Shown: in pieces, positions 7,415-39,575 of the stretch
Layout of the letters: every line of letters starts with the position of its first letter
How positions within the stretch are numbered: the first letter of the stretch is position 1
Origin: a virus
Taxonomy: Duplodnaviria > Caudoviricetes
Strand: one strand, 5' to 3'
Virus record (IMG/VR): IMGVR_UViG_3300046615_000261
Span: 64,001-128,000 of that record
Length of the DNA stretch: 64,000 bases
Notes under the pieces: generated by a model
Told to the model about the DNA's origin: nothing
The model's database searches: none
Seen by the model: only the letters and a program-made list of their open reading frames with translations
Translations under genes and position numbers: made by a program

Positions 7415-8532
7415 CAAGCTTTCCAGTTCTTATTCCGCTTGCCCTTCGTGCCAGGGCGAGTCCAAGGTTCATGATTCGGTACAACTGTCGGAGCCGTTGG
7501 ACATTCAGCTGCTGCAGCACCAGGGCCGTTCAAGTGAATGTTCGAAGCAGTCTGAAGCAGATCACCTGAAGCAAGGATGTTGAACGCTGCACCGGAGTCC
7601 AGATTGATCCCTTTACCCGAGATGTTCGTTGCACCACAAGCCGCAAGAAGCATCGCTCCGCCAGCCTGGATATTTACAGCACCACCAACACCGACGTTGA
7701 AGTTCCCTGTTGCGGTGAAGTTGAAGTCTCCACCAGTGCTCATGCTGACCGAGTCGGCCGCGTACATGTGGATCCGACCGTCTTGGTCCATTTCGAAGTA
7801 CGACTTCCCGCGAGCTGTGGAAACGTAGATCCGTTCGTTCGCGTCGTCCAGAATGATCTGATGGCCGGCCGAAGTCTTCACTCGAACTCGGCCTGTCTCC
7901 GGATTGTCCTGGAAGATCAACGAGTGACGCCCAGGTGTTGTCAGAACGTAAGTCTGAGGATCATATTGAGCCGCGCCTTCTTTGTCACTCGGCGTCACCA
8001 GGTCCTTTTGGTACCCTTCAGTTCCATCCTTGTCGGTCTTGTCCTGAGCGACAGCACGTTCGTACACGCCACGGGTCTTGGCTTCGCTGGCATCGAGCTT
8101 ACCGTCGAACTGCGCAGCAAGATTCGATGACTGTGGCTCGACCGGCTCGAACGTGTCCGAGAGCGGCATCTTGTTGATGTCGGCTCGATTGCGGCCCTGC
8201 GGCAGGGAACGATTCCCGTGATCACGGAAGTACGAACCCATGTACATCCGACGATTCGGGTCATTGTACAGGAAGCCGACGATCGCTTGAGCACCAGTCT
8301 TTGGCACAGCCCAGAAACCGTACGACATGAGGCCGGACGTTGTCGTACCTCCAGGCCCTGCTGGATAATCACGAGTCTGACCTGCCATTGGAGAGACGTA
8401 CGTCGCCCACGGCAGATCATCAATGTTGTACATGTCGCCGTCAACTGCTGGAACCCAGATCTTGACACGCCCCATTTGCTGAGGATCGTTCGTGTCAACG
8501 ACGACACCTTCCATGAGCGATGAGAGAATCAT
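7414..8532 (-). CDS. Baseplate hub/central spike, gp5/VgrG-like (OB-fold plus beta-helix, no lysozyme domain seen)
   Basis: GVVVDTNDPQQMGRVKIWVP...LPWA OB-fold motif; TPGRHSLIFQD and beta-helix repeats. Confidence 0.8.
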   Translation of the reverse strand: MILSSLMEGVVVDTNDPQQMGRVKIWVPAVDGDMYNIDDLPWATYVSPMAGQTRDYPAGPGGTTTSGLMSYGFWAVPKTGAQAIVGFLYNDPNRRMYMGSYFRDHGNRSLPQGRNRADINKMPLSDTFEPVEPQSSNLAAQFDGKLDASEAKTRGVYERAVAQDKTDKDGTEGYQKDLVTPSDKEGAAQYDPQTYVLTTPGRHSLIFQDNPETGRVRVKTSAGHQIILDDANERIYVSTARGKSYFEMDQDGRIHMYAADSVSMSTGGDFNFTATGNFNVGVGGAVNIQAGGAMLLAACGATNISGKGINLDSGAAFNILASGDLLQTASNIHLNGPGAAAAECPTAPTVVPNHEPWTRPGTKGKRNKNWKA

Positions 8533-10604
8533 TTCAGTGTCGCTCCGTTCTGTGTTGCAGGTGCTGCATTACTCTTTGACGAGGCGCCGAACACGCTGAA
8601 CTTATTCAGCTCAAGTTCCTGTGTGAAGTGCGCACCTTCAATCTTTGTCTTGATCATGCCGCACCAGTAGAAGTTATCCGTCAGGAGCTGCTTCGTGAAG
8701 TTCTCGTTCGAGTCGATTGGATCGAGTGTCATGAAGTCGACGTTCGGGCCGTACACGTTCACCTTCACGAACATCGGTGATTGCGCAATTGACGTACCAT
8801 CGATCTGCTTCGAGAGACGGTCCATCAGATCGGTCCGCCACTTCTCTTTCACGCCTTCATTCGTTTCACTGTTCGCCTTCGCTGATGTGATCGTGACAGC
8901 CGAGACGTGCTGTGGAATGAAACCGAATGTGCAACGAGCGAGCAGATCGGGATTACCGCGAACTGTCATCTTCGCTTGACCGCTCAGATTGTAGAAGTCA
9001 GACAGATTCTGCGTGTACTGTTGCGACACTTGCTGAGGAGTCGCTTCACCGTCAGACTTCGCATTCGCGCCGAGATTGCTGAAGTTCGATCTTTCCTGCT
9101 CAGTGAGCATCCGCAGTGGGATTGGATCATTCCGTGAACGACCGAGAATCGACGTCGTGTCCTTTGCAGCCGTTGAACCGTCTTCTGGCTTCTTAGCTGC
9201 AGTGTCACCGCCCGTAAAGAGCTCACCTTGACCAAGCTTCACACCCTGCATCAGGAGCAGATTGAAGTTCTCGATCTTCAGGTCCAACGTCAGAACGTCC
9301 ATGTTCCGGCCAGAGAAAATGTAGTCGTACTCGAGGTACGATTTAGGCAGGCGCTTGTTCCCAGTGGTCTCGTACAGTGCGTCTTCCGAGGACACGGCGG
9401 TTGAGGTCATGCCCTTCTGCGCATTTGGCACCGTGAACTCAACAACGTCAACGTGCACCGTGAACGAGTCATCGTCCGAGGTGATCGTGATCAGGTGCTT
9501 GTAGAACTTGATTGAGTCAGCCGACTTACCATTCGGCCCGAAGTTCGACAGCTTCTGAATCTGAACGACCTGCTTGAATACGACATCAAGAACTTCAGTG
9601 ATTGTCAGGTAAGGATCGACTGCAATGTACGAGCTCTTTGCTGTAGCAGCCGAGTTCGCTTGCGCCTTCTTCTGCGCTTCAACTGCCGAGTCGTTCTGCT
9701 TCTTCGCGTTCGATGCTTTACGATCAGCTTCCTGCTTCAGGAGCTCAGCGAAATTGATCTCAGTTGCGGCACCTTGAGCTGGTCCGGAGAATGTAAATGC
9801 TTCCCATTCCTTTGGGATCGTGATCATGTACTGCACTGGACGGCCGAGGCGCTGCGCCTTGTCCTTGCTGTCAGCATCGACACCGTTCACGGTCTTGTAC
9901 CGCGTCAAAGACTCATCGTTCAGCCGACCTTCGAACGACTTCACGAGAGCACCCAGGGTGTTCCCCGATCCGCCCGTATAGTAGTTAGATGCCGTTCCGA
10001 TCGATGTCCACGACGTGTTCACTCGTGCATTCGAGGTCATACCGATCAGTGGGAAGCAAGAGCAAGCGTACACGCCCTTCACGTCGTTCAGATCGACCTG
10101 GATCGTGCTGAAGATTGCAGGGATGCCAATCGACTGAACGATCTTCGTGTCGCCTTCGGCCGTGTGTCCAACGAAGATCACACGGATCAGGAGCGACATC
10201 CCATCAAAGCTGACTTGGAGTTTCTCGGCCATCAAGTACTGCAGGAAGTTCGCGAACGAAATGCCTGTGTTGTCGACAATGCTGAAGTCCATCTTCAGGC
10301 CGACGGAATTCGGTGAGTTCGAGCCAGGCACTGACATCCCAGCGATCATTGTATCAATCGAAAAGTTTTCGATCGTGAACTGAGAGAAACGGCGCGTATC
10401 AATCATCAGGAAAGCTGACTCAGCCTTTCCGTCCATTGAGATTGATCCACCAAGTTTCTTGCACGAGTCAATCGCTTTCAGCGAGGCCGAAAGCTTGTTC
10501 TCATCGCTGAAGTCTCTGAGCGCGTCAGTCGACTTCGCAGCAAGCACCACATAGTGGATCGTGTGCGATTGGAACTGATCTAGTTTGTTTGTGACGTTGA
10601 TCAT
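8529..10604 (-). CDS. Putative baseplate hub protein (gp27-like position)
   Basis: 691 aa between the gp53-like and gp5-like genes; assignment mainly by context. Confidence 0.45.
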   Translation of the reverse strand: MINVTNKLDQFQSHTIHYVVLAAKSTDALRDFSDENKLSASLKAIDSCKKLGGSISMDGKAESAFLMIDTRRFSQFTIENFSIDTMIAGMSVPGSNSPNSVGLKMDFSIVDNTGISFANFLQYLMAEKLQVSFDGMSLLIRVIFVGHTAEGDTKIVQSIGIPAIFSTIQVDLNDVKGVYACSCFPLIGMTSNARVNTSWTSIGTASNYYTGGSGNTLGALVKSFEGRLNDESLTRYKTVNGVDADSKDKAQRLGRPVQYMITIPKEWEAFTFSGPAQGAATEINFAELLKQEADRKASNAKKQNDSAVEAQKKAQANSAATAKSSYIAVDPYLTITEVLDVVFKQVVQIQKLSNFGPNGKSADSIKFYKHLITITSDDDSFTVHVDVVEFTVPNAQKGMTSTAVSSEDALYETTGNKRLPKSYLEYDYIFSGRNMDVLTLDLKIENFNLLLMQGVKLGQGELFTGGDTAAKKPEDGSTAAKDTTSILGRSRNDPIPLRMLTEQERSNFSNLGANAKSDGEATPQQVSQQYTQNLSDFYNLSGQAKMTVRGNPDLLARCTFGFIPQHVSAVTITSAKANSETNEGVKEKWRTDLMDRLSKQIDGTSIAQSPMFVKVNVYGPNVDFMTLDPIDSNENFTKQLLTDNFYWCGMIKTKIEGAHFTQELELNKFSVFGASSKSNAAPATQNGATLK

Positions 10605-10976
10605 TTATACGATCGGAGTGATGTTCGAAAGTGGAATTGTCCGGGCGCTCTTGAATCCGCCGACTCGACCGTTCATGAGCATTCCAGCCCGATCCTTCGA
10701 TGGGATACGGAGAACGCGGCCGATCGTGATCTCAGAGAATGGATCAAGGATCGCGTTGTACTGCGCGATCAACCACCAGAGATGAGAGTCGCCAAGGAAT
10801 GCGGCAGCAATCAGATCAAGACGACCTTCAGTCTTGATGTCGACCGTGTACCGCATGTCGCTAGGATCTACTTCGAATTGAATGCGTTCCCACCATTCAA
10901 GGCGAGTGCTGTTCACTTCGGTCTCGCCGCCAGAGACGTACCGAGAGTTCTGAACGTTTACAGAGTTTTTATCCAT
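10605..10976 (-). CDS. Baseplate wedge protein gp53/LysM-like
   Basis: RLDLIAAAFLGDSHLWWLIAQYNAILDPFSEITIGRVLRIP. Confidence 0.8.
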   Translation of the reverse strand: MDKNSVNVQNSRYVSGGETEVNSTRLEWWERIQFEVDPSDMRYTVDIKTEGRLDLIAAAFLGDSHLWWLIAQYNAILDPFSEITIGRVLRIPSKDRAGMLMNGRVGGFKSARTIPLSNITPIV

Positions 10977-12415
10977 TATGCGCTCTTCAATTGATCAATC
11001 TTTGCCTGGGCCGCCGATGCCTGGGTGTTCAGGAACTCCTTCTGCGAGGTCCACTTTGCACGATCTGCATCTGTCGCCGCCGCGGCGAGTGCCTTATCGG
11101 CCGATTCCATACGGGAACCTTGAAGCTCACTGATGTACTTCTCAAGGCGAGCAATCTCAGTTTCGTTCGAAGGAGCAGCAGGAGCGGGGGCCGGTGCTGG
11201 AGCAGCTGCTGGCTCTGGGGTGTCCTTGGTCATGATCGGCGTGCCTGACGCCAGCAGCGAATCGGCCGTGAAACCAGGGTCCGTTGAGGTGTCAGAAGCT
11301 TCAGTTGGATAGTTAGACTCGAACGGCTCGCTCGCTGTCGAGGTTGGGTAATCCGATTCGAACGAAGTAGCTTGCACGCCACTCTCTTGCTTAGCGTCAG
11401 ACTCAAGTTCGCCAGACGGTTCAGAGCGATTAACCTTACGATCACCACCGTATGCTTCGATCATGTCGCCGTTGCTGAACGCCAGCAGGTCAAATGCGTT
11501 GAACTGCACTGCAGAGAACGACTCAACCAGATTGATTTGAACATTAATCACGGATGGGAATGGCTTCGACTCGACTGCATCGTCAATTGGAATCCAGTCA
11601 CAGTCACGCGGCCATTGCCAGTTCAGTGAAGTCAGAACGACCGGAACCTTGCCAACGATACCACGCCAGCCGCTGAATGCCAGCACTGGAGGTGGAGCGC
11701 CTAGCATCTTTCCACGTTGGTTCTCACCGAAGTACGGCATCACCCATGAGCGAAGACGATTGATGAACTCGTAATTCTGACGAGCTTGTTCACGAGTACT
11801 TGCCGTGAACATCGCGTTCACGTTCCACTGGGTAGCCTTCGTGCCCTTGTACTTCTGGAATTCGCCAGGCATCTGGGTAGCAGAGAGTGCTTCGTACTCA
11901 GCGTTCCGTTGCTCACCAACTTCAGGCATGATCACGAACTTCACGAGCGTGTCATCAACCATCGAGACGAGTTGAACGATGTGATCGTCATTCCCGGAAC
12001 TCGTGCCACCGCCAGCAGCATTGATCTGCGAAGCAGAGACTGAACTGCTTTTGACGGCTGAAGTACCTTCAAGTCCAGTGCCATCGAACATGTTCATCGC
12101 ATCGAACTTAGCGATCAGCGAATCGAATTCTGCTTGATCGGCGCCGAATCGATCAGTGACCGCGCCGACAGCCTCATCGAGCAGTTTAGTGCTTCCAGCT
12201 GACGAGTAATCGATCGAGTCATCACGGACCATGATCGGTGTTCGGCTTGCCCAAACAGCGTCAACATCAAAGCCGCCGTCATTCAGATCGGCAGAGTCGA
12301 GGGTACCGAGACCGGCTGGGCTCGAGGTGTACAGATCCTCCGAGTAATCAGGCAGAGTAAGGTTCTCTGGCTCATTCACCTTCGGCAGGCTGAATACGGA
12401 ATCAAGCAGTCCCAT
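10976..12415 (-). CDS. Baseplate/tail-tube initiator-like protein (gp48/gp54-type)
   Basis: Start at ATG 12415 (SD AGGTGG); core YKGT...RLRSWVMPYFG...GAPPPVL...VPVVLTSLNWQWP resembles tube-like baseplate proteins. Confidence 0.55.
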   Translation of the reverse strand: MGLLDSVFSLPKVNEPENLTLPDYSEDLYTSSPAGLGTLDSADLNDGGFDVDAVWASRTPIMVRDDSIDYSSAGSTKLLDEAVGAVTDRFGADQAEFDSLIAKFDAMNMFDGTGLEGTSAVKSSSVSASQINAAGGGTSSGNDDHIVQLVSMVDDTLVKFVIMPEVGEQRNAEYEALSATQMPGEFQKYKGTKATQWNVNAMFTASTREQARQNYEFINRLRSWVMPYFGENQRGKMLGAPPPVLAFSGWRGIVGKVPVVLTSLNWQWPRDCDWIPIDDAVESKPFPSVINVQINLVESFSAVQFNAFDLLAFSNGDMIEAYGGDRKVNRSEPSGELESDAKQESGVQATSFESDYPTSTASEPFESNYPTEASDTSTDPGFTADSLLASGTPIMTKDTPEPAAAPAPAPAPAAPSNETEIARLEKYISELQGSRMESADKALAAAATDADRAKWTSQKEFLNTQASAAQAKIDQLKSA

Positions 12416-13076: not shown

Positions 13077-13219
13077 TCTGGAACCCTGTGAACATCTTCT
13101 ATTTAGACCTTGATGAAAAGCGCTCGACGGGTCAACCGCGAGCGTACAATAGTGGTGGAGCGATTCGGTTATCCCGGGTGACCCGCGCGCGGGTGCAGGA
13201 GGAACGTTACAATACACAC

Positions 13220-27165: not shown

Positions 27166-27239
27166 CAGTGTCGCCTTCGATCTAAATATGGAACCTACCT
27201 ATTTACGGGCTTTAGAAAAGCCCCTCTCGGGACCACTGG

Positions 27240-30098
27240 ATGGCAATCGACAACGACATTCTTAAAACACTGCAGAGCATTGAGAAGCTTCTCAAGAGCA
27301 CGTCGTCTGCTGCTTCCGGTAAGTCAACGTTCTCTCAGAAATTCGACAAGATCCGCGGGAAGAAACAAGACGATAACTCTGGCGACGGTAAGACCTTCCA
27401 AGCTTTCACGAAGAGCATGGATAAGGCTGATGACGCTCTGCTTGGACTGTCAAGCAATCTGTCTGGCTTGAACAAGGAAGTCGGCAGAACGACGTCTGGA
27501 TTCAGCGCTCTGAATGCGCAGATGTCGAAGTTCATGTCGGCTCTGCAAGTCACGCCACCAGGTGTGACACAAGCTGCAGGCGCTCCGAGAACTCGTATCC
27601 CTGGTAAGAACGGGCTTGGTGGTGTCGCACCAGGTATCACGATTCCTGCTCCAGCGGCAGGTGTAGGCGCTGCCTCACCAATGAAGCAAGTCATGGGGCG
27701 AATGCTTCAGAACTTCGGCCAAGCATCCGTTGGTTCTGGCGGCCTTGCACTCGCATTCGGCGCACTGATTGACGCAACAAAGCGTGTCACTGGCGAGTAC
27801 TTTAATTTGGCTGAAATGGGCATGGGCTCAGTCAGCAATCTGGCGACACTCTCTAAGAACGCGCTGATGTCGGGCATGGCTCTGAAAGAGTACACGGCCC
27901 TGATCGGTTCGAGCATTAATGTCGCTTCCCGCGCCGGCAATCTCGAGAACTTCCAGAAGATCATCTCGGCGCAGGATGCCCAGCTCGCAGCAATTGGCGT
28001 GTTCGGTGCAGAAGCCCGCGCAATGCAGGCTTCGCTGGCCCAGAGTTCGGCGCAGCTTGGTGTTCCGATCGGTGATCTGACGAAGGCAACTTCATCGCAG
28101 ATCGACATCTTTGATAAGCTCCGCAAGTCGTCGAACATGACGGCTTCTGAGTTCGCAAGCATGACTCGTTCTGTTGCGAACAGTGAAGAAGCTCAGAAGG
28201 AACTGCTTGGACTTGCGCCATCAGAACGTATCGCTCGCATGAATCAGCTCGTGCAGCTGAACAGCATCGGTACGAAGATGGGTATGGCTGCTGACGCTTC
28301 CGCGAAGCTCGGCCAGGCTCTGATGGCGGCACGTCAATCGACCGTCAAGGAACGTATCGACACTTCCGGCCTGATGTTGCAGATGGGTGCGTTCACTGGG
28401 AACGGCGCCGCTGGCCAACGTGGCATGGAACTTCAAATGAAGGGCCGCCGCCGCACAGAGGCTGAAGACGAAGAACTGCTGCAGATCTCGCAGACCTTTG
28501 AGCGTTCTGCTCAGACGATGTACCAGCAGGGTTCGCTTGGCGTTCAGAATGTTCTTGATCAGTTCGAAGAACAATCCTCAAAGGGTGCGTACGGCCAGAT
28601 GGTCAAGGCTGGCCGAGGAAAGTCGCTCGCTGAAGATACTGGCACGGTAAATCAAGTTGCGTTCGGACAGCACGTTGGTGAATTCGGCCAGGCAGTTGGT
28701 AAGCTCACTTCACTGTTCAACGGTTTCGAACAGAGTGTTCTCGGCCCACTCGTCGCAGGTCTTGGTGGTGGTCTGCTCACGATGTTCCGCGGTCCAATCG
28801 TGAACATCCTGTCTAAGGCACTTGGATTCGGTGGTGGAGCAGCAAAGGCTGCAGGCGCAGTTGCTTCGGCCGCTGGAGGTGGTGGAGCTTCAGCTGCGTA
28901 CGGCGCTGGCCAGGCAGTCGGTAAGACGATGTCTTATTTGTCAAATGCATTCTCGACAGGTAAGAGCGCAATTGCTGGATACATCCAGAACGTAAGACTC
29001 TCGAGCGCAATCATCAAGGATGCTGGCGGCACGACAATGGAAGTCGTCGGTCAGGTCTTCAAGGATGGTATTACCGCAGTGAAGGGTAGCGGCACGATGA
29101 TGGCGGACGGCATGAAGTCATTCACCTCAGTCCTGAAGGCATCCGCACCTGAAATGAAGGCAGCGTTCGTGGGTGGTCTTGATGTGCTCAAAGGTGGCGC
29201 GGGAATGCTCTGGACCGGTTTGAAGGGTATCACGAAGATCTTCGGCCCACTGAGCGGTCTGATTGATGCTGCGATCGAAATGTTCACTGGCGATATGTCG
29301 GATGCGCTGAACCCAAGTGGCGGCGTATTCAACCGCATGGGCGGGATGATCACGGCATTCTTCACAGCAATTCCGAACATGCTCATTGACGCGCTTGCGT
29401 TCGTGTTCGGTGATGAGAACATCCAGCCTCTGAAGCGCGGTTTTGACCTGATCGTCGGGTACATGAACTTCGCGATCAAGGACTTCCTCGCTCGTCTCGC
29501 AGGTGGTGCTGCTGACTTGATGGAATCGCTGCCATTCGTTGGCAAAGACTCTCGCATGGTCAAGATGCTGCGCGGTTGGCAGGATGGTCTGGTTGACTCG
29601 GCGACTGAGAACGTCGCGATGGTCGAGAAGCTTTGGGACAACAACAGCGCGACGATGGCCTCGATCTCGAAGGAGAACAAGGCAGTCGCTGACAAGCAAT
29701 CAGCTACCTCAGAGCAAGCTGCCACGAAGGTCGTCGCTTCTCAGAGCAAGTTCAACAACGTGATGGAGGCCGGTGCAGTGACGGCCGCTTCTGTCTATGC
29801 CGACGCTGCAGCACTTGCTGCACCACAGGTTCAGGTTGCAAAACAGGTCAGCACGGCCCCTGTAAATACTGCTGATCAGCAGACCGCTCAGGCACAGGCC
29901 GCGGCTGCAACCCAACAACAGCAAGCTGCAACAGTGACGTCCGATCTGGCGTCGGTGATGCAGTCCATTCTACAAGTTCTACGTGAGAATCTGCCTCGTC
30001 AAACTGACAGCTCTGAAGCGCTGGTCAAGCTCGTTAAACCGCAGACCTCTTTCCAATCAGCAGAAGACGCCGCAAATCAACTCTTGCGCCGCAGGTAA
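27240..30098 (+). CDS. Tape measure protein
   Basis: 952 aa, A/G/S-rich helical sequence with hydrophobic stretches; late promoter. Confidence 0.7.
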   Translation: MAIDNDILKTLQSIEKLLKSTSSAASGKSTFSQKFDKIRGKKQDDNSGDGKTFQAFTKSMDKADDALLGLSSNLSGLNKEVGRTTSGFSALNAQMSKFMSALQVTPPGVTQAAGAPRTRIPGKNGLGGVAPGITIPAPAAGVGAASPMKQVMGRMLQNFGQASVGSGGLALAFGALIDATKRVTGEYFNLAEMGMGSVSNLATLSKNALMSGMALKEYTALIGSSINVASRAGNLENFQKIISAQDAQLAAIGVFGAEARAMQASLAQSSAQLGVPIGDLTKATSSQIDIFDKLRKSSNMTASEFASMTRSVANSEEAQKELLGLAPSERIARMNQLVQLNSIGTKMGMAADASAKLGQALMAARQSTVKERIDTSGLMLQMGAFTGNGAAGQRGMELQMKGRRRTEAEDEELLQISQTFERSAQTMYQQGSLGVQNVLDQFEEQSSKGAYGQMVKAGRGKSLAEDTGTVNQVAFGQHVGEFGQAVGKLTSLFNGFEQSVLGPLVAGLGGGLLTMFRGPIVNILSKALGFGGGAAKAAGAVASAAGGGGASAAYGAGQAVGKTMSYLSNAFSTGKSAIAGYIQNVRLSSAIIKDAGGTTMEVVGQVFKDGITAVKGSGTMMADGMKSFTSVLKASAPEMKAAFVGGLDVLKGGAGMLWTGLKGITKIFGPLSGLIDAAIEMFTGDMSDALNPSGGVFNRMGGMITAFFTAIPNMLIDALAFVFGDENIQPLKRGFDLIVGYMNFAIKDFLARLAGGAADLMESLPFVGKDSRMVKMLRGWQDGLVDSATENVAMVEKLWDNNSATMASISKENKAVADKQSATSEQAATKVVASQSKFNNVMEAGAVTAASVYADAAALAAPQVQVAKQVSTAPVNTADQQTAQAQAAAATQQQQAATVTSDLASVMQSILQVLRENLPRQTDSSEALVKLVKPQTSFQSAEDAANQLLRRR

Positions 30099-30107
30099 GG
30101 ATATTTC

Positions 30108-31826
30108 ATGTCTCAAATGACTTCGTTCTGGCGCATCGTTGCTCCTAAGACACGTAAGCAACTGTACACAACGCTCAGCACGGATGCGTACGATCCACGC
30201 TCGACAGATATGTCGTCCATGGCTGCAGTTACTTGGTACTCGCAGATCATGCGCGGGCCAGGTACTCGGATGGCTTCGTACAAGCAGTACGACACAATGG
30301 ATACCGACATCGACATCTCGCGTTCCCTCGACATTATCGCCGAAGAAATGTCCGGCAAGGATGACAAGACTGATCTGCCGTTCGTGATCAAGTGGCAGAA
30401 GGAAGACAACCAAGACGTGTCTGACACGACAGTTGTGACAGTTCGTGCTGCTCTTCGTCAGTGGGCGCAGATGCAGGATCTGAAGAAGCGCGTGTTCAGC
30501 ACGGCTCGAACGATGATCAAGTACGGTGATTGCTTCTTCCGCAAGGGTTCTGACACGCGTAAGTGGACGTACGTCGATCCATCGCTCGTGATTGGTATCG
30601 AGGTTGACGAGCTCGGCACGAAGGTCGCTTATCATGTGAAGCGTCCAGCTCAACAGCAACAGCAATCGCAGATGTACACGACCCAGCGTATGGATGACGT
30701 TGACGTCGTTCCAGCGGCTGCGATGATTCACTTCTCGATGTGTGACGACATGGGCGACTCTGCTCCGTTCGGTCACTCAGTGCTGAAGCCAATCTTCCGT
30801 GTCTACCGTCAACTTTCGATGCTTGAAGATGCGGTGATCATTTACCGTATCGTTCGTGCTCCAGAACGCCGTGTGTTCTACATCGACGTCGGGAACATGA
30901 ACCAACAACAGGTCAAGCGTTACCTCGAGTCGGTCAAGAACGAAATCCGTCAGAAGCGCGCGCCAGGAACGACTGCTGGCGGCAAGGCTGAAGTTGACGG
31001 CCAATTCGATCCTACGTCGCTCCAAGAAGATTACTTCTTCCCAGTCACGGCCGCAGGTAAGGGTTCACGTGTTGAGACTCTGCCAGGCGGCACTGAAGAC
31101 TTCGGTACGAATCTGCTCCGCTCGTTTGCTGAGAAGATCTTCCGTGGTCTGCGTATTCCGACCTCGTACCTTGGCGGTCAAGAGGGTGCTGGCGCTCAGA
31201 CGAACGACGGCAAGGTCGGTATCGCGTACATCGAAGAACTTCGGTTCGCGAACTTCATCACGCGTCTGCAAGACCGGATGAACGAAATCTATGACCAAGA
31301 ATTCAAGATCTACTTGAAGGTCTGTGGTCTCCGCATTGACGATGAAGTGTTCCAGGTCCGTCTGCCAGATCCAGCGAACTTCGCGCTGTACCGTCAGGCT
31401 GCGCTCGATGCCGATCTGATTGCATCGTTCCAGAACATTCAGGAAGTTAAGTTCCTGTCGCGTCGCTTCATCTTGAAGCGTTACCTCGGTCTGACGGATG
31501 ACGAAATCCAGATGAACGAAGTGATGATCAAGGAAGAGAAGAACATGTCTGACAACGCGATTGTGCCGATCATGCAGCAGATGTATGACGATGCAGTGTA
31601 CGCGAATCGTGCCGAGATCACGGTTGACGGTGAGAACGTTGATCAAGGTGGCGGTGGTACTGACGAAGCTGGCGATCCAGGAGCAGGTCTCTTGGATAAC
31701 GACTTCGAAGACAAGCCATTCGCATCAGCGCCTGATGAGTCTCCAGAGGCAGCTCCACCTGAAGGTGCTGATGAAACTGGTGCAGAACCACCAGCGGCAG
31801 GTGAAGAACCGCCAGCAGCCGGCTAA
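30108..31826 (+). CDS. gp20: Portal vertex protein
   Basis: MLEDAVIIYRIVRAPERRVFYIDVGNM...EDYFFP...VETLPGG. Confidence 0.95.
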   Translation: MSQMTSFWRIVAPKTRKQLYTTLSTDAYDPRSTDMSSMAAVTWYSQIMRGPGTRMASYKQYDTMDTDIDISRSLDIIAEEMSGKDDKTDLPFVIKWQKEDNQDVSDTTVVTVRAALRQWAQMQDLKKRVFSTARTMIKYGDCFFRKGSDTRKWTYVDPSLVIGIEVDELGTKVAYHVKRPAQQQQQSQMYTTQRMDDVDVVPAAAMIHFSMCDDMGDSAPFGHSVLKPIFRVYRQLSMLEDAVIIYRIVRAPERRVFYIDVGNMNQQQVKRYLESVKNEIRQKRAPGTTAGGKAEVDGQFDPTSLQEDYFFPVTAAGKGSRVETLPGGTEDFGTNLLRSFAEKIFRGLRIPTSYLGGQEGAGAQTNDGKVGIAYIEELRFANFITRLQDRMNEIYDQEFKIYLKVCGLRIDDEVFQVRLPDPANFALYRQAALDADLIASFQNIQEVKFLSRRFILKRYLGLTDDEIQMNEVMIKEEKNMSDNAIVPIMQQMYDDAVYANRAEITVDGENVDQGGGGTDEAGDPGAGLLDNDFEDKPFASAPDESPEAAPPEGADETGAEPPAAGEEPPAAG

Positions 31827-33522: not shown

Positions 33523-33671
33523 TCACTATGTGCTGAAAACATCCCCGTTTTCAGCACATTTTCCGAACTGCGCGCTAAATACCACCACATGATAAAGAGT
33601 TGGTAACAACTTTAGTCACGCAGAAATTCAAATGTGGTAGCTTCATGCTACCGAAACTTAGGAGAAAGCTA

Positions 33672-34556
33672 ATGGACGAAATCCTGCAGAAACTGCTTCA
33701 GTCCGAGCTGCTCAGCGAAGAAACCAAAACTGAACTCTCCGAGCAATGGACCACTTCGGTCGAAGCCTACAAGACGCAAGTCCGTGAAGAAACTTCGCTC
33801 CAAGTTCGTTCGGAACTCGCAGAACAGTGGATCGGCGAACGCGACGAACTCGTCGCCAAGGTCGATGGTTTTGTGTCTGAAGCACTCATGAACGAAGTTG
33901 CTGAACTGAAGGCTGACATCGAGCGCTTCCGTGATCTCGAAGCTGAATACGCTGAAAAGATTGTTGAAGAGAAGCACAAGCTCGCAGAAGAAGTCGCATC
34001 TGAACTCGACCAACTGGTTGACAAGATCGATGCATTCTTCGAAGCACGCCTGAACGACGAACTCGATGAGCTCAAGGAAGACCTCGAAGTCGTGAAGCAA
34101 AACGAATTCGGTCGCAAGATCTACGAAGCATTCGCAAACACGTTCGCTGGCGCTCACATCGACGAATCGTCGATCGCTGGTAAGCTCAAGATTGCTGAAG
34201 CTAAGCTCGCAGATGCTACCTCCGCTCTTGCTGATTCGGAAGAATCCCGCTCGACGATGGTTCGCGAAGCAAAGATGAACACGCTCCTCGCTAGCCTCAC
34301 AGGCAAGAAGCGCGAAGCGATGGAAATGGTTCTCAAGAATGTCGAAACCGGCCGTCTTGAAGAGTCGTACAAGTTCTTTATCGGTCGTGTCCTGAAGGAA
34401 GATGCTGCACCAGCTGCTGCTCTGACTGAAGGTAAGACGGTCGACAAGAAGACAACGGTTGTGACTGGTGACACGCAAGTCGAACAAGTCGCAAAACAAC
34501 CTGCAGCCCTCAGTGAAAGCCTGCTCCAGCTGCAGCGCCTCGCCGGTATCAAGTAA
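33672..34556 (+). CDS. gp22: Prohead scaffolding protein
   Basis: SD AGGAG, ATG 33672; acidic coiled coil, GRKIYEAF motif; directly upstream of the capsid gene. Confidence 0.85.
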   Translation: MDEILQKLLQSELLSEETKTELSEQWTTSVEAYKTQVREETSLQVRSELAEQWIGERDELVAKVDGFVSEALMNEVAELKADIERFRDLEAEYAEKIVEEKHKLAEEVASELDQLVDKIDAFFEARLNDELDELKEDLEVVKQNEFGRKIYEAFANTFAGAHIDESSIAGKLKIAEAKLADATSALADSEESRSTMVREAKMNTLLASLTGKKREAMEMVLKNVETGRLEESYKFFIGRVLKEDAAPAAALTEGKTVDKKTTVVTGDTQVEQVAKQPAALSESLLQLQRLAGIK

Positions 34557-34581: not shown

Positions 34582-35835
34582 ATGCAACTCAATGAAAACT
34601 GGACCGAAACCAAAGAGGCTCTGCTCGAAGGCCTGACCGGTTCGAAGAAGACTCTCGCTTCGACGCTGATGGATAACCAGCGTCGCCACCTCCTGGAAAC
34701 TGCAGGCGCCACTCAAAACGGCACCGGCGACATCCAAGGCTTCCAGAAGATCGCGATCCCAATGATCCGTCGTATCATCCCAGGTACGATCGGTACGGAA
34801 CTCGTCGGTGTTCAGCCACTCACCGGCCCAGTCGGTCTGGCTTACTCCCTGCGCTTCGCTTTCGCTGAAGCCCTCGACGTCGCTGGCACAGGCAACGACA
34901 TCGGTGTGAACGACGAAGCATTCTCGAACAACGTTTCGAAGATGAAGCGCTTCTACTCGGCAAACCTGCTCACCGGTTCGGTTGGTACGTCTGATGGTTC
35001 CACGACCAATGACTCCACTGGTCTGGAAGCTCAAGGTGGCCGCACGATGCGCCTGCAAGTTCTGAAGCAAACCATCTCCGCTGGCTCGCGTAAGCTGCAA
35101 GCGAAGTGGACTGTTGAAGCTCAGCAAGACATCGGTTCGCAACACGGTCTGAACCTCGAAAACGAACTGGTCGCTGCTCTGTCGGCCCAGATCGCGCACG
35201 AAATCGACAACGAAATCCTGACCGACCTCGTCGCTCTGGCTTCGACCGTCGCTACGTACGACTTCGCAGCTCCAGTCGCTGGCATGGCTCCAGCATTCAT
35301 CGGTGATCGTTACGCTGAACTCGGCGTTCTCGTGAACAAGATGGCAAACGAAATCGGTGTGAAGACACGCCGTGGCCCAGCTAACTGGCTGGTCGGTTCC
35401 CACCTGACGACGTCCCTCCTGCAGTCCGCTGCAAAGTCGGTGTTCGCTCCAGCAGTCCAAGGCTCGTTCGCTGACCCAGTCGGCAACAAGATGGTTGGTA
35501 CTCTGAACGGCCAACTGAAGGTGTACTCGTACCAGTGGGGTCTGGGTGATGCATGGACGATCGGTTCCGGCGCTGCTACGGCAGACTCCGCAGCTGGTGA
35601 GCAGATTCTGCTCGGCTACAAGGGCGGTTCTTCGGAACTCGACTCCGGCTACTTCTACTGCCCATACGTGCCACTCATGTCCTCGGGCGTGATCATGGAC
35701 CCAGCAACGTTCTCGCCAGCAGTTTCGCTGATGACCCGTTACGGCAAGGCAACGTTCACGAACGCTGCTACGTCGCTCGGTAACTCGGCTGACTACTACG
35801 CACGTATCCTCGTCAAGAACGTTGCATTCAGCTAA
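34582..35835 (+). CDS. gp23: Major capsid protein
   Basis: IPMIRRIIP...VGVQPLTGPVG, SRKLQAKWTVEAQQD, EIDNEIL, GYFYCPYVPL, MTRYG. Confidence 0.97.
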   Translation: MQLNENWTETKEALLEGLTGSKKTLASTLMDNQRRHLLETAGATQNGTGDIQGFQKIAIPMIRRIIPGTIGTELVGVQPLTGPVGLAYSLRFAFAEALDVAGTGNDIGVNDEAFSNNVSKMKRFYSANLLTGSVGTSDGSTTNDSTGLEAQGGRTMRLQVLKQTISAGSRKLQAKWTVEAQQDIGSQHGLNLENELVAALSAQIAHEIDNEILTDLVALASTVATYDFAAPVAGMAPAFIGDRYAELGVLVNKMANEIGVKTRRGPANWLVGSHLTTSLLQSAAKSVFAPAVQGSFADPVGNKMVGTLNGQLKVYSYQWGLGDAWTIGSGAATADSAAGEQILLGYKGGSSELDSGYFYCPYVPLMSSGVIMDPATFSPAVSLMTRYGKATFTNAATSLGNSADYYARILVKNVAFS

Positions 35836-37486: not shown

Positions 37487-38701
37487 ATGAAAATTGCTGT
37501 CATTGGGGCTGGAATCGCTGGTACGCTTTCCGCCTATTTCTTGGCCGAGGATGGCCACCAAGTTACTGTCATTGATCGAGAACCTGAGCCCGCGATGGCT
37601 TGCACTCGAGCGAATGGCGGTCAAATCTCTGTCTGCAACGCCAGCACCTGGAACACGTGGTTGAACGTGCGCAAGGGTTTGAAGTGGCTCACACAAGCAG
37701 ACGCCCCTCTCCTGATTCGTCCGAAGCCTGAACTCGCGAAGCTGAAATGGCTCGCTGGTTTCATGCGGCACGTCGTGAACGGCACGCACGAGGCGAACAC
37801 GATCGAGACGATCGGTCTCGGCCTGACATCACGTTCCTTGTACGAGAAGATCGCTGAGCGCGAAGGTCTGCAGTTCGACAAGTCGAGCACTGGCCTGCTG
37901 AATGTGTACACGAGCGACAAGTCGTTCGAAGACGCGCTCGATGAGAACTGGATGTTCGCGTACGCTGGTCTTGAGCGGAAAGAGCTCACTACTGAGGAGG
38001 TGATAGCGCTTGATCCAGGTCTGAAGAACTTCAAACATCTCGTTGGCGGCATCCTGACCGAGTCCGATTGGACGGGCGATCCGCACAAGTTCTGCCAGCA
38101 GCTCAGAACGATTCTCGAGTCACGCGGTACCCAGTTCCAATTCAATCAAGAGATCGAGCTTGGAACCGTGCACGATGCGAACACATTCACGCAGAACGGC
38201 CATGACTTGCTCGGCCTGTATGATCTGGTCGTCGTCTCGAACGGTCATGAGATCAGCCAGTTCGCATCGCACCTTGGCGACTCGATGAATGTGTACCCTG
38301 TGAAGGGGTACTCGATTACGATCGATGTGGAAGGTGATGAAGCTCCTCAGTTCTCGCTCCTTGATGACGATCGCAAGATCGTCTCCTCGCGTCTTGGCGA
38401 TCGCTTCCGCATTGCCGGAACTGCTGAGCTCACTGGTGTGAATTACGACATCCGCCGAGATCGAATCGATCCGCTTTTGAACTGGGTCCGTGAGAACTTC
38501 CCGAACGTTCGAACAAGCACGTACAACCCGTGGGCCTGCCTCCGCCCAATGAACTCGAACATGATGCCAATCGTTCGTCGTTCCAAGAACCCGCGCGTCT
38601 GGTACCATGGCGGTCACGGCCATCTGGGCTGGACCCTTGGTGCGGCAACTGCGAATCAGCTCGCCGAGAAGATTCAAATCGCCGTGACAGTGGGTGGCTA
38701 G
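37487..38701 (+). CDS. dadA: FAD-dependent D-amino acid dehydrogenase (DadA/DAO family)
   Basis: GAGIAG Rossmann motif, ANGGQIS, YPVKGYSIT, RIAGTAE, WACLRP, GHGHLGWTLG. Confidence 0.85.
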   Translation: MKIAVIGAGIAGTLSAYFLAEDGHQVTVIDREPEPAMACTRANGGQISVCNASTWNTWLNVRKGLKWLTQADAPLLIRPKPELAKLKWLAGFMRHVVNGTHEANTIETIGLGLTSRSLYEKIAEREGLQFDKSSTGLLNVYTSDKSFEDALDENWMFAYAGLERKELTTEEVIALDPGLKNFKHLVGGILTESDWTGDPHKFCQQLRTILESRGTQFQFNQEIELGTVHDANTFTQNGHDLLGLYDLVVVSNGHEISQFASHLGDSMNVYPVKGYSITIDVEGDEAPQFSLLDDDRKIVSSRLGDRFRIAGTAELTGVNYDIRRDRIDPLLNWVRENFPNVRTSTYNPWACLRPMNSNMMPIVRRSKNPRVWYHGGHGHLGWTLGAATANQLAEKIQIAVTVGG

Positions 38702-38830
38702 CACGTAGGCTCGGCTCACTCAGAACACCCGAGGGACCTTTGCGTCCCTCGTTCAGTATGCTCTGCATCCTAGAACTCGGGTGCACCCTGCGCACTGATC
38801 GTTACAATTGATCTTTCAAGGAGAACAAGA

Positions 38831-39031
38831 ATGACAACTTACGCACGGAAGGTGCTCGACGTAGCAGTCCACAATCTGGATCGCTCGATCGAAGTACAAG
38901 AAGCGTCTATCAAAGAGCTGCGGAATGATCTTGGCATCGCAGAGAACGATCTGCAGAACAGCTACAACCACCGCGTCGAGCTGATCAACTCGATCATCGC
39001 GCTCGACGCTCTGAAGCGAGATGCTGTCTAA
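38831..39031 (+). CDS. Small coiled-coil hypothetical protein
   Basis: TACAAT 38803, SD GGAG. Confidence 0.65.
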   Translation: MTTYARKVLDVAVHNLDRSIEVQEASIKELRNDLGIAENDLQNSYNHRVELINSIIALDALKRDAV

Positions 39032-39575
39032 GATCACGATCCCGTTCATTAGGAAGATCATTCCTAGTGTGATCGCGTCTGAACTTGTCAGTGTTCAACC
39101 GCTGACAGGCCCCGTAGGCGAGATCTTTTCGATCCGCCATAATTTAGAACTTTACTTTGGACCAGGAACAAACCAAGCCATGATGAATATCCGCCAACGC
39201 TCTGTGAACGTCAATCGTCTCGAGCTGCTCGAGAAGCTCCGCGCCAATCTCGCTGTACATCGCGCCGAGTACGAAACCGCTCTGAGCGAGTACAAGCAAC
39301 GTCTGATCGACGACCTGAAGCTTGCTGTGAAGAAGGTCGGCAAGGTCGAGAATCCACTCGAGCTGAAGAGCTTCCGATTCGCTCTGCCATTCCCACAGGA
39401 TTACTCCTCGCAGTACGAGGAAGTGATCGACATGCTCGAGATGTCGGTTGATGAGAACATCAATCTCGACTCCGAATCGTTCAAGGCGTACCTGAAGAAC
39501 GAGTGGTCGTGGAAGGGTAACTTCGAAGCTTCCGCCGCGATGTACAAGTCGGTCGGCTCTTCGCTCTCGCTGTAA
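39021..39575 (+). CDS. Protein with an N-terminal copy of the gp23 Gol-like segment fused to a helical phage domain
   Basis: aa 4-39 are 24/36 identical to capsid aa 56-91. Confidence 0.7.
   Translation: MLSKITIPFIRKIIPSVIASELVSVQPLTGPVGEIFSIRHNLELYFGPGTNQAMMNIRQRSVNVNRLELLEKLRANLAVHRAEYETALSEYKQRLIDDLKLAVKKVGKVENPLELKSFRFALPFPQDYSSQYEEVIDMLEMSVDENINLDSESFKAYLKNEWSWKGNFEASAAMYKSVGSSLSL

Follow-up and report, generated by a model that had tools for sequence, protein, structure and literature searches.

An in-frame copy of the capsid Gol segment at the N-terminus of a phrog_34511 accessory protein in a T4-like giant phage

The DNA analysed here (the window) is a stretch of 64,000 nucleotides (nt), positions 64,001 to 128,000 of the IMG/VR record IMGVR_UViG_3300046615_000261 (Duplodnaviria; Caudoviricetes). 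The record is 234.5 kb long and 66% complete, and comes from an uncultivated T4-like giant phage of rhizosphere soil. Downstream of the major capsid gene, the window contains an open reading frame (ORF) of 184 amino acids (aa), named ORF184, in which a widespread accessory gene is genuinely extended, in frame, by a capsid peptide: its N-terminal part copies a segment of the phage's own capsid protein, at the position of the T4 Gol peptide, and its C-terminal part is a helical domain of the phrog_34511 family. The locus comprises the following features.

34582..35835, + strand: major capsid protein of the Gp23 family (Pfam Gp23, E 2e-83)
34747..34854, + strand: capsid segment aa 56-91, source of the module (pairwise alignment with ORF184)
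38801..38808, + strand: GTTACAAT motif preceding the ORF184 operon, promoter-like (motif overrepresentation in the window)
38831..39031, + strand: 66-aa ORF upstream of ORF184 (read from the sequence)
39021..39575, + strand: ORF184, putative long isoform composed of Gol-like module, linker and phrog_34511 domain (184-aa open frame)
39030..39137, + strand: Gol/N-arm module, ORF184 aa 4-39, copy of capsid aa 56-91 (BLASTP, Pfam and codon counts)
39138..39179, + strand: variable linker, ORF184 aa 40-53, containing an AGGA (39164..39167) that resembles a Shine-Dalgarno (SD) sequence (homologue comparison)
39180..39575, + strand: putative short isoform, the canonical phrog_34511 protein of 131 aa, beginning ATGATG (profile match and homologue starts)

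ORF184 begins at the first ATG that follows the in-frame TGA at 39012, and the identical protein is encoded on three contigs, the longest of 331,776 bp. A preliminary description of this DNA, made from the letters alone, had counted 24 identities in 36 residues between the N-terminal part and capsid aa 56-91, and pairwise BLASTP reproduces the count: ORF184 aa 4-39 align without gaps to the phage's own capsid with 24/36 residues identical and 28/36 similar (E 2e-14). Pfam Gp23 (PF07068) also matches ORF184 aa 3-56 above its cut-off (E 7e-10), over positions 5-53 of the 376 of the profile only. Lacking a match to the full Gp23 profile, ORF184 is the carrier of a copied capsid fragment and not a capsid paralogue. 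The full-length capsid gene is single in the 234.5-kb record, where a search of the genome otherwise returns the fragment only. The equivalence with the T4 gp23 Gol segment, claimed earlier, was borne out by alignment on the T4-type gp23 of phage RB7, which places ORF184 aa 4-39 at about residues 93-128, the span of the Gol peptide. In T4 this stretch comprises the last part of the N-arm and the ordered residues that come first. In gp23 94-122 the module keeps 11 of 29 Gol residues of RB7 at homologous positions; the T4-type positions retained are R100, I103, P104, I107, V114-Q115-P116, P120 and G122, giving the skeleton R..IP..I......VQP...P.G. AlphaFold2 (AF2, 38-row alignment) predicts disorder over the N-terminal 55 residues, with a predicted local distance difference test (pLDDT) below 50 in the Gol module, and the linker that follows varies in sequence and length between fused homologues.

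ORF184 aa 54-178 match positions 1-121 of the 126 of the phrog_34511 profile (E 9e-36), a family of unknown function, and the first residues of the stand-alone homologues of Pseudomonas phage pf16 (gp172), Ralstonia phage RP13 (ORF198) and Stenotrophomonas phage DLP_6 (gp032), proteins of 116-130 aa, align with M54-M55 of ORF184, as do those of most metagenomic homologues. The near-complete profile match and the common start methionine place the C-terminal part in phrog_34511, a domain family with 641 clusters at E<=1e-10 in a search of 1.84 billion representatives. In the same AF2 model, aa 57-178 form a predicted helical bundle with pLDDT above 90, whose sole match in BFVD is the pf16 homologue (template modelling score 0.88 by the target). 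Foldseek of the model against the PDB gave no match at E<=0.001, VIA-align wide returned generic helical bundles only (Z<=7.1), and the ESM Atlas search gave no usable match. That this domain could be a diverged piece of capsid was ruled out by an hhalign probability of 0.9% against the capsid alignment; together with the open frame, this agrees with the in-frame fusion to an unrelated helical domain noted in the preliminary description. ORF184 and its phrog_34511 relatives thus have in common the start methionine, the predicted fold (for pf16) and the neighbouring genes, whereas the proteins of the isolates and of most metagenomic members lack the capsid-derived extension that ORF184 has. The gene order kept in relatives runs portal, protease, scaffold, capsid, small variable genes, often an acyl carrier protein, the ORF184 homologue, MazG-like, RNase T-like, gp13 and gp15; in the window, the portal is encoded at 30108..31826 and the scaffold at 33600..34556. 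ORF184 itself follows the capsid gene downstream at a distance of 3.2 kb (2-4 kb across relatives), with the head module on one side and the neck module on the other.

The start of the family is retained inside the longer frame. In eight fused and ten unfused loci, the ATGATG at which family members start has a GGAG or AGGA 8-12 nt ahead of it, the AGGA of the window being at 39164, so that a conserved internal SD and start codon are found within a longer open frame. The second start had been placed earlier at 39179; an internal start does exist, and its ATG is at 39180, coding for M54. Since the family SD and the ATG at 39180 are kept, it is likely that two isoforms are made, a plain one of 131 aa and a less abundant, coupled and tagged one of 184 aa. 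The coupling would be with the 66-aa ORF, which is preceded by a good SD (AAGGAG before 38831) and whose stop overlaps the start of ORF184 by 11 nt (ATGCTGTCTAA); the outer start of the homologue P0008 likewise overlaps an upstream frame. From this juxtaposition, it is possible that the 66-aa ORF and ORF184 are translationally coupled. The 66-aa ORF (38831..39031) has no family match, and the idea that it is a homologue of the ORF upstream of P0008 was discarded, as the two are not homologous. In-frame dual-start genes are known from phages, as lambda C/Nu3, T7 4A/4B and the holin/antiholin pair S107/S105. ORF184 resembles them in having one frame, two starts and a C-terminal part common to both forms, and differs in that its dual translation is read from sequence conservation only and in that the extra N-terminus is a borrowed capsid peptide.

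Codon comparisons indicate how the module has evolved. Over the 36 codons, module and own capsid show a proportion of synonymous differences (pS) of 0.65 and of non-synonymous differences (pN) of 0.24 (Nei-Gojobori; ratio of the corresponding rates, dN/dS, about 0.19; Fisher p 1.8e-4), with an identity of 0.43 at third positions and 0.82 at positions 1+2. The capsids of related phages keep a third-position identity of 0.6-0.9, and the value of only 0.43 rules out a recent gene conversion from the capsid gene. We also compared the detached copies of four phages (the window, L006, L011 and L056) among themselves, a comparison that involves no capsid lineage, and found pS of 0.64-0.87 against pN of 0.25-0.36 (p 0.013 to 3e-5); the helical domain has the same pN over its first 45 codons. 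As copies without a capsid lineage show pS well above pN, the module is constrained as a protein, and its likeness to the capsid is not upheld by recent conversion from the capsid gene. The codon counts thus point to an old copy whose Gol module is under purifying selection of its own at the protein level, in agreement with the selection and synonymous divergence proposed in the preliminary description; neutral evolution, named there as an outcome that would speak against a function, was not seen. Among the rhizosphere contigs, where coverage is too thin for the result to carry weight, 39021..39179 has no variant or indel and the C-terminal domain has three third-position changes.

These counts bear on an alternative in which the real product is the 131-aa protein from 39180 and the upstream piece is a non-functional, in-frame leftover of a partial duplication of the capsid gene. 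Such a relic would fit the retained family start and SD, the weak SD of the outer start, a series of truncation and decay that runs from P0008 (with the capsid N-terminus) to the degenerate P0019, P0012, L050 and L015, and the loss of the extension across most of the clade. Against it stand the purifying selection between copies that are not capsid genes, the saturation of synonymous sites while amino acids are kept, and the census of upstream regions. In this census, the 360 nt before the family start of 57 loci were scored in all three frames against a capsid 40-mer (noise 13-29); eight loci rose above noise, with scores of 119, 117, 85, 78, 46, 40, 39 and 31, and all eight signals are in frame with the gene without an intervening stop, while the other two frames carry no signal. 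Neither these loci nor eight further representatives have a frameshift or stop, and copies that are otherwise decayed still keep a [VA]QP[MLI] core. Additionally, there are independent families of Gol-only ORFs, described below, one of them conserved end to end between two genomes. We therefore regard a mere leftover as rather improbable.

Within the family, the extension is present in 6 of 68 clusters and also in 8 of the 150 best representatives, some of them on branches whose helical domain has only 28-43% identity with that of the window; several of the distant fused representatives retain the internal methionine. In the tree of the helical domain, the eight fused census loci fall within one 18-row subclade, intermixed with unfused genes, which forces at least three changes, and L015, the sister of the window, has a degenerate Gol relic only. 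The extension of P0008 begins with the capsid's own N-terminal residues. As read from these sequences, the founding event is a duplication of the 5' ~270 nt of a capsid gene, set in frame before a phrog_34511 gene, and the first copy started, as P0008 shows, at the start codon of the capsid. A more elaborate case is P0130, a metagenomic protein of 227 aa, with three capsid pieces in non-native order ahead of the phrog_34511 domain: a C-terminal Y.PYVPL strand, Gol and a RKLQAKWTVE strand (capsid aa ~343-366, 54-81 and 163-191, respectively); these pieces may adjoin in the P-domain sheet of the HK97 fold. Another origin was considered and set aside, namely that the fragment is what is left of a second, gp24-like capsid gene that followed g23. 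Neither the record (234.5 kb, 66% complete) nor its relatives hold a second full Gp23-family gene, and Gol-only ORFs stand at many unrelated genome positions, so that a single deletion relic does not account for the pattern.

The preliminary description had proposed looking for other Gol-only ORFs and their fusion partners, and many were found, on G001, G002, G005, G009, L130 and L144. The search with a profile of the module covered 18 related large viral records, in each of which the capsid was also found, and two further cases came from a DNA pattern scan of viral contigs.

G002, a complete 424-kb genome: 148-aa Gol-only ORF beside an array of paralogues
G001: 71-aa Gol-only ORF between primase and replicative helicase
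G005: Gol-only ORFs of 87 aa and ~179 aa
G009: 82-aa Gol-only ORF, end-to-end homologue of the 87-aa protein of G005 (E 3e-11)
L130, unrelated T4-like contig: 74-aa Gol-only ORF just upstream of the DNA polymerase gene (DNA pattern scan)
L144, unrelated T4-like contig, 10867..11139: 90-aa ORF with a twin-arginine-like leader (NRRDLFKGALG...) and a Gol-like segment (DNA pattern scan)

The Gol-only ORFs all match just positions ~4-48 of Pfam Gp23, and the module always stands at or near the N-terminus. ORF184 differs from them in that its module is an optional N-terminal extension on a widespread gene that keeps its own start, and not a dedicated mini-gene. The pattern IAx[EQ]LVSVQP, searched in the DNA of viral contigs, returns mostly true capsids, and its serine is for this reason not specific to detached copies. 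A word-indexed protein search with the module alone had the query as its only match. In 50,697 cultured phage records the module matched 2391 places in 2386 records, so that detached copies are rare among isolates; the best match there, in RAS14, is the capsid gene.

A fragment of a second head protein is displayed by the same genome outside the window, in a mini-ORF of 140 aa (G000:C1:2606-3028; locus L208 807..1229). Its aa 21-53 are identical to the phage's own portal aa 254-286 at 15 of 33 residues (E 1e-7, pairwise), and they match positions 205-237 of Pfam Portal_T4 below the cut-off. ORF184 belongs to a recurrent class of detached capsid and portal peptides in giant T4-like phages. Our literature search turned up no paper on genes for detached capsid peptides or on decoys that mimic the capsid, and as far as we found the class is unpublished.

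Two of the Gol-bearing regions hold further small ORFs. In G002 (L075 1659..2998), the small ORFs of a paralogous array have ..LAF.LKWG or a similar motif at their ends, and one of them alone has the N-terminal Gol module. In L130, two neighbouring small ORFs (7725..7949 and 8574..8900, - strand), one of them Gol-bearing, have a near-identical acidic-aromatic tail, EEFFK.EEF..E, and the pair lies between the helicase and family B DNA polymerase genes; this tail may be a replisome-docking motif.

The time at which ORF184 is expressed can be approached through the motifs ahead of it. The GTTACAAT motif occurs six times in the window against 0.64 expected (at 13206, 14765, 14781, 36899, 37474 and 38801), and three copies lie 5-80 nt ahead of consecutive + strand gene starts (36986, 37487 and 38831), often after a stem-loop, an arrangement that resembles the promoter-stem-loop cassettes of T4-type phages. 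Boxes like ATCTAAATA, of the form (A)TCTAAATA, are found at 27180, 35932 and 41133, ahead of structural-type genes at 27240, 35972 and 41172; they are candidates for the late promoter in this group of phages. The T4 late promoter consensus TATAAATA does not occur in the window, and a sigma-70 scan around ORF184 was no better than shuffles. Since the operon is preceded by GTTACAAT and not by the ATCTAAATA of structural genes, the motifs hint that ORF184 stands outside the late class. The earlier label of an early operon goes further than this and is not established by the presence of GTTACAAT instead of ATCTAAATA before the operon.

The Gol region of T4 is a binder of EF-Tu and the activator of the e14 Lit protease, its immune role having been discovered as host exclusion. 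The module of ORF184 is the same stretch of a T4-type major capsid protein; in T4 this stretch occurs inside the capsid protein only, whereas ORF184 has a separate, selected copy fused to another protein and 11/29 identical. Candidate readers of the module are of four kinds: head-assembly partners, EF-Tu, GroEL and immune sensors. The decoy and EF-Tu ideas of the preliminary description are among these candidates, and they are not the best supported.

One of these ideas is a counter-defence decoy, in which the peptide, made before the capsid, would occupy or desensitise a host sensor (a Lit-like protease, Avs7/8/10, Dsr1 or CapRel-type). In T4-type capsids no linear part is more conserved than the stretch that was copied, which is also the known trigger of Lit, and the same genome displays a portal fragment. 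Its patchy distribution with gains and losses is typical of arms-race accessory genes, the motif before the operon is of non-late type, and several mini-ORFs lie in replication (early-type) clusters. On the other side, Georgiou et al. reportedly found in 1998 that the T4 Gol 29-mer, as a free peptide, activates Lit, and if this holds, a faithful copy should trigger Lit and not block it. The characterised Avs-type sensors read folded proteins, while the module is predicted to be disordered, and a decoy needs neither the fusion partner nor the retained short isoform. Moreover, no capsid sensor is known from the host of the phage, and we found no paper describing such decoys. Capsid and portal proteins are sensed by many defence families (bioRxiv 10.64898/2026.01.04.697583; PMC9712102), which again suits a decoy. 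Taking both sides together, we consider it an unlikely reading.

A host factor may instead be the partner: by binding EF-Tu or GroEL, the module would carry the helical domain to the machinery of translation or of folding, or would titrate that machinery. The module corresponds in position to the Gol peptide, and its N-terminal placement suits a co-translational tag. EF-Tu is bound by the T4 capsid protein, as cited in a preprint, and one defence family senses capsid protein together with EF-Tu (bioRxiv 10.64898/2026.01.04.697583). The N-terminus of gp23 also sends fusion proteins to GroEL (PMC3012670); the GroEL-targeting element has, however, been attributed to propeptides, and it may lie in a propeptide that is absent from ORF184 (PMC10052503). 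The Gol residues in common with T4-type gp23 are only 11 of 29, and the portal-fragment mini-ORF is left without an account. A complex prediction of E. coli EF-Tu with the alignment of the Gol module, run without controls, scored 0.00, which weighs neither for nor against binding. Copies also appear to track the capsid of their own phage: the module and capsid of the window have in common VQPL and ELV (VQPM and DLV in relatives), the mini-ORF and capsid of G002 have VQPL, IAN and PV.R, and those of G009 have IVGVQPM. Such tracking would follow from a phage-specific reader, or from a need of the copy to mimic the capsid present in the same phage, and it is not expected for a highly conserved host factor. 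Recruitment of EF-Tu or GroEL is in our view quite unlikely.

The reading that we prefer, with a probability of roughly 0.35, is that the module serves to tether or address ORF184 to the assembling heads of its own phage. In this proposal, the disordered tag would act as a peptide mimic that binds what normally binds the unassembled or prohead-state capsid stretch, and it would tether the helical domain to that partner, or occupy the partner. As partner we would favour the machinery with which the phage builds its head, be it the scaffolding core, the portal or adjoining capsid subunits, and the long isoform may be drawn to proheads under assembly, either as an accessory in that process or to be packaged as cargo. 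The AF2 model of the capsid (11-row alignment) has a pLDDT of 37, and the position of the module in the capsid was therefore read from the T4 literature. In T4, gp23* 66-105 is disordered in the unexpanded head, pointing inward, probably onto the scaffolding core, and the region turns into the N-arm and N-fist upon expansion (PMC9546572). The stretch includes two sites of head-length mutations (A94V and G97S) as well as M98, the anchor of the portal whiskers (PMC9546572). A head-assembly partner is preferred because the T4 stretch faces the scaffold in the unexpanded prohead and carries head-length sites and the portal-anchoring methionine.

A further idea, that the module was retained to harm rivals, is very improbable. 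As a dominant-negative capsid fragment, it would poison head assembly of co- or superinfecting T4-like phages, and the copied segments, being the most conserved of capsid and portal, would give it broad reach. However, the copy is most like the own capsid, so self-poisoning is expected, and we found no experimental precedent in phages.

The T4 capsid-targeting sequence (CTS) of IPI-III and Alt consists of ~10 residues, which the prohead protease removes after hydrophobic-x-Glu. The module of ORF184 resembles it in being short, N-terminal and carried by diverse small accessory proteins of T4-like phages, and by analogy it could direct its carriers to the prohead core. Unlike the CTS, it is ~36 residues long, derived from the capsid, unrelated in sequence and without an evident cleavage site after it.

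Several observations weigh against an address to the assembling head. No prohead-protease site (L/I-x-E) was found after the module of ORF184, where ..NLE/L and ..ASE/L have no hydrophobic residue at P3; without a gp21-type cleavage motif, the analogy with T4 capsid targeting is loose. Of the relatives only P0008 has such a sequence, LLKE/L, and it lies near the N-terminus. The outer ATG at 39021 has a weak SD, a purine run (GAAGCGAG) abutting the ATG, and initiation of the long form would for this reason depend on coupling to the upstream 66-aa ORF. The extension is dispensable, as most family members are without it, including those of pf16, RP13 and DLP_6, and it is degenerate in L015. Some Gol-only mini-ORFs are located among replication genes, which offers no suggestion of head assembly. 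Also, the residue tracking concerns a few positions in three genomes and could reflect separate origins of the copies from each phage's own capsid.

Beyond the tether to the own head, the decoy, the EF-Tu or GroEL recruiter, the relic and the interference with rivals, our remaining confidence goes to something that we did not consider. A wider statement, that giant T4-like phages use detached, selected stretches of capsid, and also of portal, as portable N-terminal address or mimic peptides, is put forward here tentatively, as a doubtful generalisation. In ORF184, such a tag would let a single gene yield two products, one of them free and the other sent to whatever recognises the N-arm of the capsid.

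No phage peptide read by bacterial immunity is better known than the Gol stretch, and the sensing of capsids has by now proved to be widespread. In this sense, a detached Gol copy under selection would point to an undescribed use of capsid peptides, be it as a decoy, as a head address label or as a handle on EF-Tu or GroEL. If the reader is a host capsid sensor, the module would represent a new class of counter-defence by self-mimicry, and if the prohead reads it, a new signal for cargo loading that derives from the capsid. One start codon separates the tagged from the untagged form of ORF184, the module has 36 residues and its partner folds confidently in the prediction, which makes this a testable case. 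Additionally, phrog_34511 has cultured members, in pf16, RP13 and DLP_6, that are open to genetics, and with 641 clusters it is among the larger uncharacterised accessory families of T4-like phages.

Two minor observations concern genes around the locus. Between the capsid gene and ORF184, the window holds a gene for a 404-aa FAD-dependent oxidoreductase-like protein (37487..38701), with a GAGIAG dinucleotide-binding start; it is probably a recently acquired accessory gene, because it is missing from the syntenic region of the relatives. In one relative (L009 5049..6389), the capsid gene call begins 22 codons before the conserved MQLMENW start and is probably over-extended.

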